Source: Candidatus Bathyarchaeia archaeon (GTDB lineage Archaea > Thermoproteota > Bathyarchaeia > 40CM-2-53-6). Taken from it: a stretch of 15,873 nucleotides of DNA. Location: the NCBI GenBank assembly GCA_049517415.1, contig JBEKSC010000037.1:1-15873 (forward strand), given 5' to 3'. Below the pieces are notes generated by a model. It worked only from the letters and a program-made list of their open reading frames with translations, ran no database searches and was not told the DNA's origin. Shown piece after piece: positions 932 through 13,622 of the stretch. Numbering within the stretch: the first letter of the stretch is position 1; the number at the start of each line of letters is the position of its first letter. The translations under genes and the position numbers were made by a program.

Positions 932-1020
932 GTGTGTGACCGTCCAAAGTTGAACCGTCGTCCGTCGTCGTGCACGTAATTTGTGTGTGTGCGCACCACC
1001 ATACCCACCCACACACAAAA
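930..1020. repeat. Cassette-boundary element A: M1 (tRNA-end-like) + M2 (CGTCGTCCGTCGTCG) + M3 (TTTGTGTGTG) + GCACCACC + inverted M3
   Basis: ggtgtgtgaccgtccaaagttgaacc-gtcgtccgtcgtcg...tttgtgtgtg...gcaccacc...cacacacaaaa, overlapping the stop codon of the upstream gene. Confidence 0.8.
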
Positions 1021-1092: not shown

Positions 1093-2265
1093 GTGGGATC
1101 CGGTACGTCGCTCCTTGTTAAGCCGTTAGACGCAATTGTCGAAGCAGATTTGCAGTCTTTGATTGACAATAAAGTCGCTGAAGCCAAGTCTATCGAATAC
1201 AAATCGCTCTTGCCTGGTCCCACTGATGCTGAGAAAAGGGAATTCCTTTCTGATGTTTCATCGTTTGCTAACACAATAGGGGGGGACATCTTCTACGGAA
1301 TCCTTGAGTCTTCTGGTGTACCTACCGAGCTCAGGGGGATGCAGGTCGAAGACTCTGACGCACTCAAGCTTCGACTTGAAGACATAATGCGACACGGAAT
1401 TCAACCAAGAATAGCTGGCATTGCGTTACACGTCGTGCCCCTGCAATCCTCAGCCAAGGTAGTGATAATTCGTATTCCTAGAAGTTGGGCAGCACCACAT
1501 ATGGTTTCCTTCCAGAACTACTCTAGGTTCTTTGGCCGCAACTCAGCGGGAAAATACCAGCTTGATGTTACTGAAATTAGAGCTGCTTTCCTTCTTTCCG
1601 AGAATGCGTCAGAACGAATACGAGGATTTCGTGCTGATCGATTGGTTCGAATCCGTTCTGGCGATACTCCCGTACCATTGAAAGAGGGCGCCAAAATCGT
1701 ATTTCACATGATCCCACTAGGGGCTCTGGAAAGACCGACTAGCTTGAGTGTAGCTTCCTTGAAAGCAGTAGACTTGCAGCCTATGGCCGTCTCAAGCTGG
1801 AGCTATCGGTTAAATTTCGATGGAGCCCTTGGTTATTCACACCAATCATATCTTCAGGTATTTCGAAATGGTGTGCTAGAATCGGTGGAAGGGCTGCTTC
1901 TAGACGACGGTAAGATTCCATGTATAGCTTACGAGAAGGAACTGCTGGACGTGTTGTCTCAATATTTCTCAATCGGAAAGAGAATTGGAGTCGATCCCCC
2001 TAGTCTGGTGATGCTCAGCTTACTCGGCGTACGAGGATATACTATGGCTACCGGTCAGCCCTTCTCAGGGGAGGATCGGCATCAGATCGATAGACAGGAC
2101 CTTTTGGCGCCGCCCGCAATAATTGAGGATTACCAGTGCGATCCGCCAGAGGTGATGAGGCCCGCATTTGATTCAATCTGGAATGCCTGTGGATATCCTC
2201 GATCATTAAACTACGACAAGTCCGGAAAATGGGTGGGAATAGATAGGGTCAGCTCAACTAGCTGA
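1093..2265 (+). CDS. Schlafen/AlbA_2-domain protein (putative nuclease / nucleic-acid-binding)
   Basis: N-terminal 'EAKSIEYKS...EFLSDVSSFANTIGGDIFYGILE...VVIIRIPRS..APHMV...FFGRNSAG' is the AlbA_2 pattern; 390 aa. Confidence 0.85.
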   Translation: MGSGTSLLVKPLDAIVEADLQSLIDNKVAEAKSIEYKSLLPGPTDAEKREFLSDVSSFANTIGGDIFYGILESSGVPTELRGMQVEDSDALKLRLEDIMRHGIQPRIAGIALHVVPLQSSAKVVIIRIPRSWAAPHMVSFQNYSRFFGRNSAGKYQLDVTEIRAAFLLSENASERIRGFRADRLVRIRSGDTPVPLKEGAKIVFHMIPLGALERPTSLSVASLKAVDLQPMAVSSWSYRLNFDGALGYSHQSYLQVFRNGVLESVEGLLLDDGKIPCIAYEKELLDVLSQYFSIGKRIGVDPPSLVMLSLLGVRGYTMATGQPFSGEDRHQIDRQDLLAPPAIIEDYQCDPPEVMRPAFDSIWNACGYPRSLNYDKSGKWVGIDRVSSTS

Positions 2266-2300: not shown

Positions 2301-2345
2301 TTTAGTGCGTGTGGTACTAATGGTGCGGGCAACCAAATTTGAACC
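2301..2345. repeat. Cassette-boundary element B: M3-N7-M1
   Basis: tttagtgcgtgtg-gtactaa-tggtgcgggcaaccaaatttgaacc, between two convergent stop codons. Confidence 0.8.
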
Positions 2346-2354
2346 GCTGAATCG

Positions 2355-3011
2355 TCAGTTGATCGGCGCGACGACTTTCTCGGCGATGTGAACTTTCGTC
2401 GATAACAATACCGACTTGCTGGTCACGTAACGTAGTCTCGCTCTCTCAAAGAGTGTCTGATATTCGATTGTTGAGTACAATTTCACATGAGCTGGTTCTT
2501 TCTTCTTGGCCAGTCTATCGAACATTCGTGTCATAAGCCCGTCTGCCGTCATGTCGAGGACATAGATTCTCCCGTTGGGCTTCAAGACTCGGTAGACCTC
2601 TCCAAGAACCTTGTCAGGACTGAAGTAATGATGAAACGAATTAGAGCAAATGACAAGGTCAAAGAAGTCATTGTCGAAGGGGAGTTCCTCAGCATTGGCT
2701 TTCCGAAAATGAACGTTGCTGTAACTCGTGGACCCTCCTTCCGCCTTCTCAATCATCTTAGATGAAATATCGACACCATAGAATTCTCCTCGTCCATCAG
2801 CCAAGCTGGCTGCGTAGTGCACAGCCCAACCAGTGCCACAGCCCAAGTCCAGAAAGCGGGGATTCCGGCCGAATTCTAAGAGGGAAAACAGTTTCTTTTG
2901 CATCCATCTGAGGTATCTGGACTCAAAGCTAAAGCGTGTATCAAACCAGCTCTCCGCCCTCAAATCCCACAATTCTTCGTTCAGCTTAGCATATTCATCC
3001 GCCTTTCCCAC
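2355..3011 (-). CDS. Class I SAM-dependent methyltransferase (UbiE/Methyltransf_11-like)
   Basis: Motif I FLDLGCGTG, GVDISSKM, AEELPFDNDFFDLV, EVYRVLKPNG. Confidence 0.92.
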   Translation of the reverse strand: MGKADEYAKLNEELWDLRAESWFDTRFSFESRYLRWMQKKLFSLLEFGRNPRFLDLGCGTGWAVHYAASLADGRGEFYGVDISSKMIEKAEGGSTSYSNVHFRKANAEELPFDNDFFDLVICSNSFHHYFSPDKVLGEVYRVLKPNGRIYVLDMTADGLMTRMFDRLAKKKEPAHVKLYSTIEYQTLFERARLRYVTSKSVLLSTKVHIAEKVVAPIN

Positions 3012-3119
3012 GTCTGGTGTTCCCCACTACACTCTCGCAGTGAGGTGTCTCACATTTACTTCTATTGACCGACCTAGCTCAGAATTCTCGCAAATGCTGG
3101 GAGAAAACGCGCCAGGAAC

Positions 3120-3206
3120 TGGTGTGTGGCGTCAGAATTTGAACCGTCGTCGTCCGTCGTCAAATGTGTGTGTGGATATGCTGGTGCGGGCACCTGAAAT
3201 TGAACC
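3120..3206. repeat. Cassette-boundary element C: M1-M2-M3-N7-M1
   Basis: tggtgtgtggcgtcagaatttgaacc-gtcgtcgtccgtcgtc-aaatgtgtgtgtg-gatatgc-tggtgcgggcacctgaaattgaacc. Confidence 0.85.
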
Positions 3207-3258
3207 GTCATTTTAGAGGCGTTTTGATGCCGACTTCCGGTTAGCCCATATTAGCGGA

Positions 3259-3645
3259 GTGGTTATGGGACTGATGCTGATTTTCTTGGAGATTCCAGTT
3301 ACAATTTACACGCTAAACCATCAACTGATCTACGATTTACTTGGAGAGAGTAGGGGAAGTCTAGGTACGCGGAAGCAATTGACAAGTGACTTGGCTGTTA
3401 GGTACGACAGCGCCAAAATTAGAACAGCTTTCGGACTTGCTGAAATGGTTCAGATAACGTTGATCGTAGCCGAAGATATCACTGAAGGAGTTGGGGCGAG
3501 TCTTATCGTCGATTGGCTGCTCAAGAAACTTAACACGAAGGAAGCCCAAGTAACCAAATTAGAAATCGACAAGGTTGCCGTGGAACTTGACGAAGACGAG
3601 ATCAAGAAAGCCGTGTTGGAGAGAATCACGAAGACAAGCCAGTAA
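3259..3645 (+). CDS. Hypothetical protein
   Basis: 128-aa ORF occupying most of the segment between elements C and D; no family recognised; start codon uncertain. Confidence 0.65.
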   Translation: MVMGLMLIFLEIPVTIYTLNHQLIYDLLGESRGSLGTRKQLTSDLAVRYDSAKIRTAFGLAEMVQITLIVAEDITEGVGASLIVDWLLKKLNTKEAQVTKLEIDKVAVELDEDEIKKAVLERITKTSQ

Positions 3646-3743
3646 AGCCCGTCCGGTCGCTTTGAAACTTGAGTCATTTAGGATACTTAGTCGCTATGAG
3701 AAATATGGCATTTTCAAGCATTGTATAGTCCGTCTGAGTGAGT

Positions 3744-3834
3744 TGGTGCGAACCTAGCAATTTGAATCGTCGTCCGTCGTCGTTCATGTAATTTTGTGTG
3801 TGGTACTAGTGGTGTGAGCACCAGAAATTGAACT
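3744..3834. repeat. Cassette-boundary element D: M1-M2-M3-N7-M1
   Basis: tggtgcgaacctagcaatttgaatc-gtcgtccgtcgtcg...ttttgtgtgtg-gtactag-tggtgtgagcaccagaaattgaact. Confidence 0.85.
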
Positions 3835-3910
3835 CAAAAAACTACGTTAACCTTAATCCTATGAGGTAGGCTCAGATGAGTATGCGCGCTCTGATAAAGA
3901 AGCTCGTCGA

Positions 3911-4588
3911 TTATCTTCCTGCTTTTAGTATCTTTTCTCTTCTCTCTTCTCCTTTCTCCTTCTCTTCTCCCTCTTCTCGCTTCTCTTCTTTGTCCTCTTC
4001 TCGTCTCTTTTCTGTTTTCTCCTTCTCTTGCTTCTTGTCTCTTTTCTCTTGTCGCTCCTCTTCTCTGTCCTCTTTCAGTCTATCTGTTCTTGTCGCTTCT
4101 CTTCTCTCTTCTCCTTTCTCCTTCTCTCCCAGTATCTGTAATCTCTCATTGTAAAAGCGAGAAGCTACTTCTAGAACATCTTCGATTCTTTCGCTCACAA
4201 ATTTACAGTCTTCAAGCGTTTTCACAAAGAAAACAACGCGGTCGGTGCGCCCTTCCTTCTCTACTTCTTCCTTCGCTCTCTCCGTCGCTTGTGCGGTCTT
4301 CGACAGGAGGTCCTGCATGACTTTGATGTACCTATCCTTTTCCTCTTGATGTTGAGTGGCTTCGAAGATAGCCTTGTTCACTACCAGTCTATATTTCCAA
4401 ACCGCTTCTTCAAAGTTTTCATCCTTGACACTTTTCTCCGCCTGCTCAATGAGGATCCCGAGGTCCTCTTTGGATATGGCGGCCATCGGATCTAAAGAGA
4501 GGCGTCTTGCGAGAAAATCATACAACTTTTCATCGTCTCCACATAGCTGCCGCAACCAACTTTCCTCTTCCTTCTCTTTTTCCCCCAT
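3911..4588 (-). CDS. Hypothetical alpha-helical protein with E/K/R-rich C-terminal tail
   Basis: 225-aa ORF, ATG start preceded by GGAGAG. The low-complexity charged tail explains the pyrimidine-rich + strand at ~3920-4130. Confidence 0.75.
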   Translation of the reverse strand: MGEKEKEEESWLRQLCGDDEKLYDFLARRLSLDPMAAISKEDLGILIEQAEKSVKDENFEEAVWKYRLVVNKAIFEATQHQEEKDRYIKVMQDLLSKTAQATERAKEEVEKEGRTDRVVFFVKTLEDCKFVSERIEDVLEVASRFYNERLQILGEKEKGEERREATRTDRLKEDREEERQEKRDKKQEKEKTEKRREEDKEEKREEGEEKEKGEERREKILKAGR

Positions 4589-4660
4589 GAGCAGTCTCTC
4601 CGGTTTATAGCACGAGTCTATTCCTTCTTATCTCTTCTGGGGGATTCCTCTCCAACCATT

Positions 4661-5011
4661 CCTAATGGAGCTAAGGAGAAAATCATTGGAGTGCTGGAGG
4701 CACGGTTCAACGAACAAGTACCCTACAAGGGTGAACGTCTGACGTGGTGTTCGGTGATTTCGGAGGAATGCGATGAGCTAGGCCGCTACTTGGTGGGCAA
4801 GTCTAGAACGATCGACTTCATGGAGCCTTCCCCAACTTTAGAGCGATTCGACAATAGGCGGTTGCGTTCTAAGATTTCCTCATTGAATGCCTCGGAAGCT
4901 AGACGTGTTGGCATTCCGAAACAAAGCCTTCAAGACTTGAAGGTGAAAGTTAGAAGCCCACAACCATTCAAACTACACGATGAGACCATGCGGAAATTGC
5001 TAGCAGTCTAG
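4661..5011 (+). pseudogene. cas1: Casposase (Cas1-solo) C-terminal remnant with HTH-like tail
   Basis: In-frame PNGAKEKIIGVLEARFNEQVPYKGERLTWCSVISEECDELGRYLVGKSRTIDFMEPSPTLERFDNRRLRSKISSL...GIPKQSL...PFKL resembles, from memory, the C-terminus of archaeal casposon Cas1. The N-terminal catalytic region is absent. Confidence 0.7.
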
Positions 5012-5026
5012 ATTCATTTAGCCAAG

Positions 5027-5822
5027 TCAAAGCAGGAGAGTGGCGCTCCTCCATAGACCTTCAAAGATATCCTTCATGATATCATAACTCTCGATGCGCA
5101 GCAGATATGTGGGCTTCATACCCGCATGCCTTATTGATTGGCCAAATACCCAACATGAGTCATCCACAAATGCGAATCTGTCATGACAATCGGTGGTTTT
5201 CCTCACTTCAAAATTGACTTCGGGTTTCTGTTTGAATTTCTGAGCTACCGTGACGAAGTTTGAGCTCGGACTCTTGGTGAGTATCCTAATGCTTACACCA
5301 TGCTGAACTTTGGTCCAAGTAGAGGTTCAGCACGTCCTCGCTTGCATATGCATCTGCGATCGCAAGCTCATTCGCAGCAGTTTGAACGAGTCTTAGGAAA
5401 TCCTTGTAGAAATCGTAAGGCGATGCTTTGGAGTAAATTCTTTCTTCAAAGGTGAACCCCCTAACAGCTGCCACACTTCTCGCATAGATTTCAGGAGGAA
5501 CCTTCATTCTCATATCCTTCTTGCTTCGGTTCAGGATATCAAGAACATACTTCGAGATCGGGGGATAGTCCGGTCTGTCGAATTCTGTTGTGTACACGGA
5601 ATACTCTATGATTGCGTCAATTAGCGAATTCATGACACGCCGGTAACCTATCGGGTAATTCCGTATTTCTGGAACAAGGTAACGTCCGACATTGTAAACA
5701 AAACTGGCGAGCGCACGCTGTCGGGCTGTTGTACCATATCTGTTGCGTTGGCGTGCCATTCGTAGTCGTAAGAGTTGCTGTCTGAATTCCGCATAACTTT
5801 GCTTGCCCTTTTTGAGAGACAT
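5027..5822 (-). pseudogene. Frameshifted gene with C-terminal PLD-like (HDRF-type) nuclease domain
   Basis: ORF 5822-5286 (...IADAYASEDVLNLYLD) continues after one extra base near 5312 as KVQHGVSIRILT...CHDRFAFVDDSCWVFGQSIRHAG...LWRSATLLL*, stop at 5027-5029. Confidence 0.75.
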
Positions 5823-5865: not shown

Positions 5866-5919
5866 ATGTGTGTGCACCACCAGACCAATCTCTAAGAACA
5901 AGGATGGTCACACACAAAA
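5866..5919. repeat. Cassette-boundary element E: M3 + GCACCACC + inverted M3
   Basis: atgtgtgtgcaccacc...ggtcacacacaaaa, same layout as the right half of element A. Confidence 0.7.
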
Positions 5920-5924
5920 GCTCT

Positions 5925-6689
5925 TCAGATCAAATTCTCAACAAACTCAAGTAGAACTTTCATGACATCGAGCTCTCTAGCAAGAACTTCCTGACAGTAT
6001 GGTGCAAGTTCGCGTTTCTTTTCATAAGTGAACGATGTCTCGCTAGGATTATCTGGAAGCATGAACAGGTTGATCTCAGTCGCCATACTCGGAGTATGAC
6101 TGAATCGTACTCGTGGACGGATTGCCGAGTGATGAGTAACAAAGTTTCTGTATTGCCGAAATTCGTAAATCCATCCTGTGTCGCAATCTTTCTTTAGTTC
6201 GGCGATCAGTGATCCTTCGAAGGGGCTTCTTGAGCTAGCTAGAAAATTCAATACAGTTGTGAAATACACGTTGCGTTTGTCGATCGCAGTTTCAACCAAC
6301 ATGGCGATTATTCCGCCGACAATGTCTAAAGCAGAATATGCAAAATAAAAGAAAAGATCTTCATAAAAGATGAAATCTTCCGGAATAGGGTCCATCAGGC
6401 CACGCATGGAGGCATCAATAGATCCCGTGTATTTTCCATATACTTTCAAAATATATTCCAGACCTCTAGCCGCCCAGCGCAGCTTGTAAAGGACTGATTC
6501 CATTCTGTAGGCAAAATCTCTTAGGTCGACAACAATTTCGTATCTTGTCTTGAAGCTCTGCTCAAAGTGGTTACTCGATCGATCCTTAACCTTGAAGGCT
6601 ATGCTGTTGTATGGTGTGAGCATTTCATCCCATTTTGTATGAATTATCTCTGGAAGATCGAGCCTTGTCTTGGGTGTTGAGTCGACCAA
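5925..6689 (-). CDS. HEPN-domain protein (Cthe_2314-like), putative RNase
   Basis: Helical 254-aa protein with 'FFYFAYSALDIVG' and the Rx4H motif 'YRNFVTHH'. Confidence 0.7.
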   Translation of the reverse strand: MVDSTPKTRLDLPEIIHTKWDEMLTPYNSIAFKVKDRSSNHFEQSFKTRYEIVVDLRDFAYRMESVLYKLRWAARGLEYILKVYGKYTGSIDASMRGLMDPIPEDFIFYEDLFFYFAYSALDIVGGIIAMLVETAIDKRNVYFTTVLNFLASSRSPFEGSLIAELKKDCDTGWIYEFRQYRNFVTHHSAIRPRVRFSHTPSMATEINLFMLPDNPSETSFTYEKKRELAPYCQEVLARELDVMKVLLEFVENLI

Positions 6690-6810: not shown

Positions 6811-6878
6811 CTTTGTGTGTGACTCCGTTGGTGCAGGCAAGCGAATTTGAACCGGCCGTTCGTAGTTTGCGTGTGTGG
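6811..6878. repeat. Cassette-boundary element F: M3-N7-M1 followed by degenerate M2-M3
   Basis: ctttgtgtgtg-actccgt-tggtgcaggcaagcgaatttgaacc-ggccgttcgtag-tttgcgtgtgtgg. Confidence 0.8.
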
Positions 6879-6899: not shown

Positions 6900-6973
6900 T
6901 GGGAGAGAGAGTATAGGGGAATAGAAGAATATGAAAAGAATGGGGCGTTAGCTAGGGCAGAAGAGAAGGGGGG
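6900..6973 (-). terminator. Pyrimidine-rich tract on the minus strand, possible archaeal terminator/trailer
   Basis: The + strand is strongly purine-rich here (gggagagagag...gaagagaaggggg), directly downstream of the minus-strand CCA at 6980. Confidence 0.35.
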
Positions 6974-6978
6974 TATCA

Positions 6979-6993
6979 ATGGTGCGGCCGCCG
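6979..6993 (-). repeat. 15-bp exact copy of the tRNA-Gly 3' end (att/TSD-like direct repeat of 13442-13456)
   Basis: atggtgcggccgccg occurs at 6979-6993 and 13442-13456. Confidence 0.85.
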
Positions 6994-7295
6994 AGAACCA
7001 TGATTCAAACGTGGTTCCCACGGTTCGGCCTAGGTCACAAATCTCAGACAATCATAGAATAGTAACTGCAGACATTTTTGCTTTGTTGTGAATTCAAATC
7101 CCGCCGAATCCGATCCATTTTCACTCCGAGATTTCGTCGGAGACATCGGAACGCTGGCCTGACCCGTCCAGTCCTTCTCAGTTCCGACGGCACAGTGATC
7201 TGGATCAACGCAAACGGATACTCAGAAGGAACAGCATCCGAGCTGCTCCCACGACGATTAGTCGTGAAACAAGTACCCCTCTAGGATGATGCCGC
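6980..7295 (-). ncRNA. Candidate structured RNA ending in a tRNA-like acceptor strand and CCA
   Basis: About six abutting helices in an intergenic region. It starts GCGGC and ends CGGCCGC-A-CCA, and the last hairpin has the T-loop-like loop TTTGAAT. Confidence 0.45.
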
Positions 7296-13442: not shown

Positions 13443-13622
13443 TGGTGCGGCCGCCGGGATTCGGACCCGGGTTTCCTCGTTGCTGCTATCGCAGCTTTGA
13501 GGCTTGGGAAGCCCCCGTCATAGACCAGGCTATCCTTCCAACCTTTTCAGGCTGGGGAACTGGACCACGGCCTAATGGAGCAATCCGTGCTCACGCACTC
13601 AGAGTCCAGCCACGACGACCGC
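13443..13622 (-). tRNA. tRNA-Gly(CCC) with three introns (13567-13614, 13530-13559, 13473-13496) and encoded CCA
   Basis: Removing 48+30+24 nt gives a 78-nt cloverleaf: GCGGTCG TG GTC CAGCCTGGTCTAT GAC G GGGGC TTCCCAA GCCTC AAAC CCGGG TCCGAAT CCCGG CGGCCGC A CCA. Confidence 0.85.

Follow-up and report, generated by a model that had tools for sequence, protein, structure and literature searches.

Judged by its sequence, a short reading frame in an archaeal contig is what remains of a casposase gene of a Bathyarchaeia casposon lineage, a pseudogene and not an active gene. It lies in an array of gene-sized cassettes separated by short repeats, on a stretch of 15,873 nucleotides (hereafter the window) that forms an entire contig (C37) of a 2.65-Mb archaeal assembly. 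We consider it probable (roughly 75%) that the fragment is a relic of decay, and that the array was built by intact casposases at tRNA-mimic targets carried by the elements themselves and was then trimmed by deletion.

The fragment comprises 116 open codons in frame +2 of the plus strand (4661-5008), closed by a stop codon at 5009-5011. The initial annotation had described it as ~116 codons resembling the casposon Cas1 C-terminus and had proposed a family search. That description was borne out: a phmmer search of PDB had a single match, the M. mazei casposase 6OPM, aligned over chain residues 300-409 at E 7.5e-14, and three longer PF01867 proteins of 405-407 aa, drawn from 179 candidates, were 62-66% identical to the fragment (E about 1e-37 to 1e-39). 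The fragment and these three proteins clustered in a tree of C-terminal regions with a support of 0.999; over the same regions, the other casposases compared were only 31-48% identical to the fragment. Homology thus places the fragment with casposon Cas1 of Cas1-solo group 2 (family 2 type). Searches of the fragment alone against Pfam, NCBIfam, PHROGs and PADLOC gave no match, because nearly all of it is downstream of the region that the Pfam Cas1 model covers.

Profile positions 288-404 are covered by the fragment, which amounts to the complete helix-turn-helix (HTH) preceded by ~60 catalytic-domain residues. The alignment runs through the region removed in an HTH-less M. mazei construct described in PMC6977970, which also set the HTH border used here, and it points to a predicted C-terminal HTH fusion. 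The catalytic residues E171, H240 and E257 (numbering of the copy on contig C3), whose M. mazei counterparts are E162, H232 and E247, were invariant in 16/16 full-length proteins, and all three lie upstream of the break. Because the fragment retains no catalytic residue, it was not the builder of the array; the alternative once offered for it, a passenger relic, holds for this copy, which is without an active site. There is no ATG at the break, and in-frame start codons occur at 4691 (GTG) and 4820 (ATG). No piece of the missing 290 5' codons, frameshifted pieces included, was found by tblastn anywhere in the window, nor was an intact parent of the fragment's subclade recovered among the genome contigs or viral contigs searched. 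A sigma-70 promoter scan, using a model unsuited to archaea, gave no promoter excess.

Table 1 Features of the window, with positions numbered from its first nucleotide.
Feature	Position	Strand	Basis or remark
Terminus-core-terminus junction, core 992-1005	934..1016	+	Left terminus has an internal leader on the minus strand
Schlafen/AlbA_2 cargo gene	1093..2265	+	Pfam PF04326, E 8e-11
Filled target: leader and core (2327-2314)	2314..2345	-	Site pattern
SAM methyltransferase cargo gene	2355..3011	-	Pfam PF13847, E 1e-27
Filled target (core 3188-3175), then element end with decayed internal target (core near 3126)	3113..3206	-	
128-aa cargo ORF of mobile cassette 3188-3802	3259..3645	+	ORF listing
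Element end with CACACAC terminus (3802), CGACGACG tract, internal leader and unfilled core (3750-3737)	3737..3802	-	
Filled target: leader 3817-3834 and 14-bp core 3816-3803	3803..3834	-	
Cassette and upstream region, 225-aa charged ORF (3911-4588)	3836..4661	-	Element end missing in window
Deletion junction, upstream cassette / cas1 interior	4655..4666	.	Relative's alignment to 4661, element end 6 bp on
Casposase gene 3' remnant, family-2-type	4661..5011	+	Last catalytic-domain helices and HTH; E/H/E absent
C-terminal helix-turn-helix part	4841..5008	+	Aligned to M. mazei residues 342 onward; border per PMC6977970
178-aa ORF, downstream cargo of relic element	5286..5822	-	ORF listing
Eroded terminus GTGTG and core (5873-5886)	5868..5886	+	12/14 identical to core at 992
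HEPN-like cargo gene, Cthe_2314 type	5925..6689	-	PF18730, E 2.6e-4, below Pfam cut-off
Filled target: leader and core (6835-6822)	6822..6853	-	
112-bp unit (6979-7090), tRNA-Gly-like 3' end, core 6986-6973	6973..7090	-	Array's right border
Intron-split tRNA-Gly(CCC)	13443..13620, 5' border approximate	-	Read by eye; natural model of target

The array extends at least 3 kb to the left of the window on a longer metagenome contig, which joins the end of contig C8 to the window start with 7 bases between them (L101:3354-3362). The core at 3188 is identical to the core at C8:86439, and the longer contig sets the two 3.4 kb apart. Because identical partners are absent for most cores in the window, the placing of element borders is in part guesswork; the element that carried the fragment's cas1 probably had its downstream end at the eroded terminus and core (5868-5886). 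The 178-aa ORF matched no family better than E 0.003 in the family libraries, and the HEPN-like gene has homologues in two relatives. The 112-bp unit at the right border gave 11 matches (80-95%) in seven other genomes. One copy precedes a CACACAC terminus, and another precedes sequence resembling the flank of the window's real tRNA-Gly. The unit may represent the end of another, tRNA-integrating element, an end that once regenerated came to serve casposases as a target. ARAGORN and Rfam reported no tRNA in the window, both missing the eye-read tRNA-Gly, which seemingly contains several introns, one of which may lie close to the acceptor stem's 5' end.

We compared the DNA beside the fragment with that of relatives. 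The sequence at 3836-4661 has homologues in five other genomes (74-90% identity). Three of these genomes have an element end (GTGTG, then a CGCACCA-type core) 6 to ~14 bp past the point where the match stops; in the relative that aligns up to 4661, the distance is 6 bp. Since the window has cas1 interior in place of the relatives' element end, one deletion took out this end together with the target there and the gene's first 290 codons. Contigs from 4/4 sequencing runs, which may include the source sample, spanned the junction without a difference, and it is therefore no assembly error. Two same-strain metagenome contigs also spanned it unchanged. Read joints with 25-40 letters on the short side, lying inside repeats, were taken for repeat artefacts and rejected as excision products. 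The 225-aa protein of the adjoining cassette has a repetitive tail rich in E, K and R and no family match; the cassette is kept in five relatives.

Loss from the 5' side recurred among casposase genes of 23 genomes. A search with residues 1-120 of the C3 casposase returned 16 matches: 13 complete genes, a whole gene with a frameshift, a copy that begins at residue 66 and a 30-aa piece from the interior. Its last 120 residues gave 44, namely 14 whole genes and 30 matches from 29 other loci: 16 with catalytic-domain sequence and the C-terminus, six with the HTH only, six without both ends and one cut by a contig end. We set aside the six HTH-only matches because family 2 PolBs bear a similar HTH, as PMC4046053 indicates. 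Relics retaining the C-terminus thus stood at 16:0 against relics retaining the start only, six of the 16 coming from a single genome, and the N-terminal part of the protein was no less conserved than the C-terminal part. As the replication module lies mostly upstream of cas1, deletions that take it out would trim the 5' side of cas1 and spare the downstream cargo, which is our proposed reason for the polarity. In one relic locus, an element terminus lies 9 bp past the cas1 stop codon (L103:1510-1570).

The polar retention could also reflect a domesticated mini-gene, in which the HTH C-terminus is made from the GTG at 4691 or the ATG at 4820, binds leaders or element ends and damps or steers transposition by the intact enzymes. 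Along the window branch, compared with the two nearest relics, metagenome copies that match 4814-5008 at 87-89% identity and were shortened further at a separate junction, there were eight replacement and seven silent changes (omega about 0.33) and no stop, which is less decay than expected of a long-dead gene and counts against the pseudogene reading. However, the low omega includes the time spent as part of a working gene, and dN/dS against paralogues of the genus was saturated. In two relics of the same subclade, the break falls four codons ahead of the internal ATG and leaves exactly the HTH. Across the relics, by contrast, breaks fall anywhere between profile positions 62 and 361, mostly with no start codon at the break, and some relics have stops or frameshifts within the retained part. 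The HTH is required for M. mazei integration, but the isolated M. mazei HTH did not bind DNA (both from PMC6977970), and HTH-only matches may derive from other HTH-bearing genes (PMC4046053). We therefore consider a mini-gene unlikely and retain the pseudogene relic as our reading of the fragment.

The repeats follow a fixed grammar. On the tRNA-like strand, a site consists of the leader GTTCAAAT-N6-GCY, a 14-bp core CGCACCA-N7 and the terminus CACACAC; in an alternative form, the core lies between GTGTGTG and CACACAC. The genome contains 55 such composite sites (28 leader-core-terminus, 24 terminus-core-terminus and three with both), compared with none in either of two order-3 Markov simulations. 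Seventeen further leader-core sites, real tRNA ends among them, compare with two and zero in the simulations. Over the 28 sites, leader positions -16 to -10 and -3 were 75-100% conserved, partly through site selection, and the T-stem positions varied freely. The terminus begins at offset 14 in 8/13 strict junctions. Site patterns occurred in 19/22 and 21/22 genomes of the same genus and in 3/18 and 2/18 more distant ones; reversed control patterns were absent from all of them. Taken at the level of sequence, the repeats imitate tRNA 3' ends, with a T-loop-like leader, and are not copies of tRNAs.

On contig C3, three identical 14-mers flank two 8-kb inserts, the first of which (8.6 kb) has an intact casposase, so that the parent elements show the 14-15 bp CGCA-type duplication made at tRNA 3' ends. 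CACACAC/GTGTGTG at both ends forms terminal inverted repeats, shorter than the 25-602 bp given in published accounts. Real tRNA ends followed by a terminus were found in loci L104, L112 and L116; in L104, a matching tRNA-Gly end abuts a similar array, one holding a further-cut cas1 relic. Many element ends also contain a CGACGACG tract and, 50-65 bp further in, a fresh leader-core, and on contig C39 the unit of element end plus internal target is repeated (98 bp at 99%). The A. boonei leader motif is TCAAATC (PMC6614799), and M. mazei integration produces a 14-bp duplication starting with CGCA (PMC6977970, PMC4779613). Because the leader and core positions fit this motif and this duplication, we read the repeats as casposase footprints.

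Cassette 3188-3802 provided a view of mobility. It was found in four relatives, with the aligned part (3601 onward) 91-99.5% identical, and its terminus at 3802 was joined to a different 14-mer in each of the four, in forward or reverse orientation. The other border, shown by three relatives, had a similar leader and cores unlike the window's in the last 7 bp. A constant leader with a changed core end suggests that sequence was exchanged or excised between cores. A single empty target is what excision leaves behind in M. mazei, where chromosomal Cas1 moves mini-casposons (PMC10359463); by analogy, the cassettes here may be excised, and moved in trans, in the same way.

Next to the composite sites stand casposase genes. 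Of the five casposase copies in the genome, two (on C3 and C8) are intact and three are cut at the 5' side; both full-length genes retain the conserved triad, and all four Pfam Cas1 matches of the genome are casposase-type. Four of the five copies have a composite site no more than 2.5 kb away, as does 4.5% of the genome; the remaining copy, on C9, has a variant site 2.8 kb away whose terminus is C-rich. None of the five tyrosine recombinase loci lies within 2.5 kb; four are more than 39 kb from sites, and the fifth is in the C9 stretch, on a contig without a composite site, where it adjoins a cas1 relic. The window contig has no tyrosine recombinase, and hence no linked integrase of the integron kind. 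Intact paralogues elsewhere in the genome are plausible builders of the array. Casposase matches were present in 15/22 same-genus genomes, and 27 of the 29 loci returned for casposase relatives were labelled Bathyarchaeia. The co-occurrence comparison across genomes first proposed for this array failed to discriminate: site number gave rho 0.58 with cas1 hits, 0.52 with tyrosine recombinases and 0.54 with genome size over 23 genomes that include non-independent kin and incomplete assemblies. Genome-level counts do not separate the two enzymes. Sites are also numerous in genomes G007, G016 and G018, which gave no cas1 match.

These counts bear on an integron-like array, in which a tyrosine recombinase acts on tRNA-end att sites and the cas1 piece is unrelated cargo. 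Such recombinases occur in 18/22 relatives with a similar genome-level correlation, one lies 1.5 kb from the C-rich variant site on C9, the 112-bp unit resembles the end of a tRNA-Gly-integrating element, and the chimeric cores, which combine an unchanged leader with a different last 7 bp, imply that exchange took place inside CGCACCA. The distances given above speak against it, as do the joining of the same end in both orientations, the fixed 14-bp offset, the inverted termini and the free T-stem. Moreover, G007 and G018 have many sites but no PF00589 match. We regard a tyrosine recombinase as a very unlikely builder and casposases as the preferred one.

Casposons are defined by Cas1 plus PolB. 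The initial annotation had also suggested PolB as a possible companion of the arrays, and this expectation failed, as the intact elements are without it. Among the full-length cas1 loci of the 23 genomes, 13 in number, none has a PF00136 match of its own. Pfam scans found no PolB inside an element in the ORFs around intact loci (129 proteins) and the C3 element, or in 30 of the 85 long ORFs listed for further loci. The 8.6-kb C3 element between identical 14-mers encodes none, and the nearest PolB, an 869-aa protein on C8, is encoded among host genes on the far side of a junction. For want of PolB, we file the parent elements as a variant of family 2 casposons and not as members. Titles and opening parts of abstracts, in a library with few subscription journals, held no description of such PolB-less casposons, cases of which could still stand in supplementary tables of casposon papers.

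A different module accompanies about half of the intact copies. An ATPase gene (230-370 aa) lies within ~4 kb of 9/17 intact loci, upstream in seven and downstream in two, and a small conserved ORF stands beside it in eight of these nine. The other 8/17 intact loci have no such gene, and it was found at 0/13 relic loci. All Foldseek hits listed for the ATPase model (pLDDT 79) were MCM/CMG chains (best E 6e-8), consistent with a predicted MCM AAA+ fold from which the N-terminal MCM domain is absent. The MCM-like protein had no locus in viral contigs and no PDB sequence match. MCM genes are known from other integrated archaeal elements, and the casposons of the same paper have PolB (PMC6563490). 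A 109-aa protein encoded beside intact cas1, with D10/D12 and G49/H51 (DxD, GxH) conserved in 89 sequences, is probably a minimal AEP: 25 of the 89 matched the AEP-TOTE family weakly, and the top nine Foldseek rows were the LigD polymerase domain, also weak (E about 0.01-0.04). An unspecific wide fold search, in which families beyond those listed may also match, placed an unrelated fold first (Z 6.0), with AEP chains at Z 4.6-4.7. Among 11 stretches around intact copies, an HTH gene lay upstream in three, an HNH gene in one and a HEAT-repeat gene in one; Pfam detected no HNH nuclease or HTH core genes in the C3 element. A 102-aa ORF ahead of the MCM-like gene (G000:C3:147158-147463; L002:7158-7463) is without a Pfam or PHROGs match and possibly encodes a single-strand DNA-binding protein.

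A graveyard of classical PolB casposons, with PolB deleted or missed and the internal targets accidental leftovers, is highly improbable: tandem casposons and solo termini are known (PMC4779613) and an HNH or HEAT-repeat gene lies upstream of two intact loci as in family 2, but against it stand the PolB-less full-length loci and matched-14-mer element, the alternative module conserved at intact loci, and the nearly letter-for-letter repetition of end plus internal target.

Under the preferred reading, intact casposases would recognise a tRNA-3'-like target, with a TTCAAAT leader at -16 to -10 and a core starting CGCACCA, and would join CACACAC termini to it while duplicating 14 bp. With a fresh mimic target ~50-65 bp inside many element ends, each insertion could seed the next, and elements would pile up. 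Core-to-core excision and ordinary deletions would then remove the MCM-like ATPase gene and the primase-like gene along with the 5' portion of cas1, leaving cargo genes between sites. The window copy would have arrived within such an element, and its deletion would have begun at the end of the neighbouring cassette. We more tentatively envisage, at somewhat less than even odds, a Cas1-driven analogue of integrons in this Bathyarchaeia genus: trans-acting casposases would move cas1-less cassettes between self-propagating tRNA-mimic targets and so build leader-directed arrays of genes, and autonomous helper elements would replicate with an MCM-like helicase and a minimal primase in place of PolB and turn into cassettes through polar loss of the helper module, as in the fragment.

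The parent elements share with family 2 casposons (MetMaz of M. mazei and AciBoo-C1 of A. boonei) a Cas1 with C-terminal HTH, tRNA 3' targets, a 14-bp CGCA duplication, a leader motif at the T-loop position, insertion in both orientations and tandem reuse of sites. Unlike those casposons, they have no element-borne PolB, and about half of the intact copies have the MCM-like ATPase and the small AEP-like gene; their termini are simple repeats of ~7-11 bp compared with at least 25 bp, mimic targets lie inside their ends, and each genome holds dozens of sites. The window copy, in turn, is a 3' remnant of such a gene. Integrons consist of one- or two-gene cassettes between short recombination sites, with attC hairpins and a tyrosine integrase. 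The array resembles them, as well as tRNA-anchored tandem islands and Tn7-type pile-ups, in its rows of cassettes, short sites and defence-type and metabolic cargo. It differs from integrons and islands in that most arrays have no linked tyrosine integrase, and its grammar is that of a transposon (duplication and inverted termini) and not of attC hairpins or attP/attB cores.

Likeness to CRISPR adaptation by Cas1-Cas2 lies in a Cas1-family integrase, leader-directed insertion and a duplicated repeat between inserts. In contrast to CRISPR, the inserts are gene-sized with defined termini, sites lie 50 bp to several kb apart where CRISPR arrays have near-identical repeats and short even spacers, cores vary and face both ways, and no Cas2, guide RNA or interference is shown here. 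The array is thus CRISPR-like in integration geometry and integron-like in layout, and by definition neither. An early proposal had repeated Cas1 integration at tRNA ends producing gene-sized inserts in a CRISPR-like architecture. The repeats fit repeated integration, but the targets are mostly separate mimics and not one tRNA end duplicated; the CRISPR likeness extends to geometry, and nothing shows an RNA guide or immunity.

The fragment alone represents ordinary decay. The lineage as a whole retains the integration grammar of family 2 with a different replication module and with targets inside its own ends. Its arrays are natural cases in which the duplicated target of a Cas1 enzyme lies between successive inserts, as proposed for the origin of CRISPR repeats (PMC6977970), and this arrangement thereby becomes testable with short defined substrates. 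The arrays may also be a main route of accessory genes for this peat and soil archaeal genus.

Two further observations concern the arrays of the genome. Array regions on contigs C8, C12, C50, C53, C11 and C47 contain extra TBP, BON-domain, AsnC, CMD and luciferase-like genes, so that the cargo there includes host-type accessory genes and not defence genes alone. A second type of terminus, CCGCCCCCGCCG and also CACCCCCC, occupies the same +15 position at the same cores (G000:C9:21031, G000:C39:5157, L044, L047, L048 and L056), which suggests that several casposase lineages share these targets.
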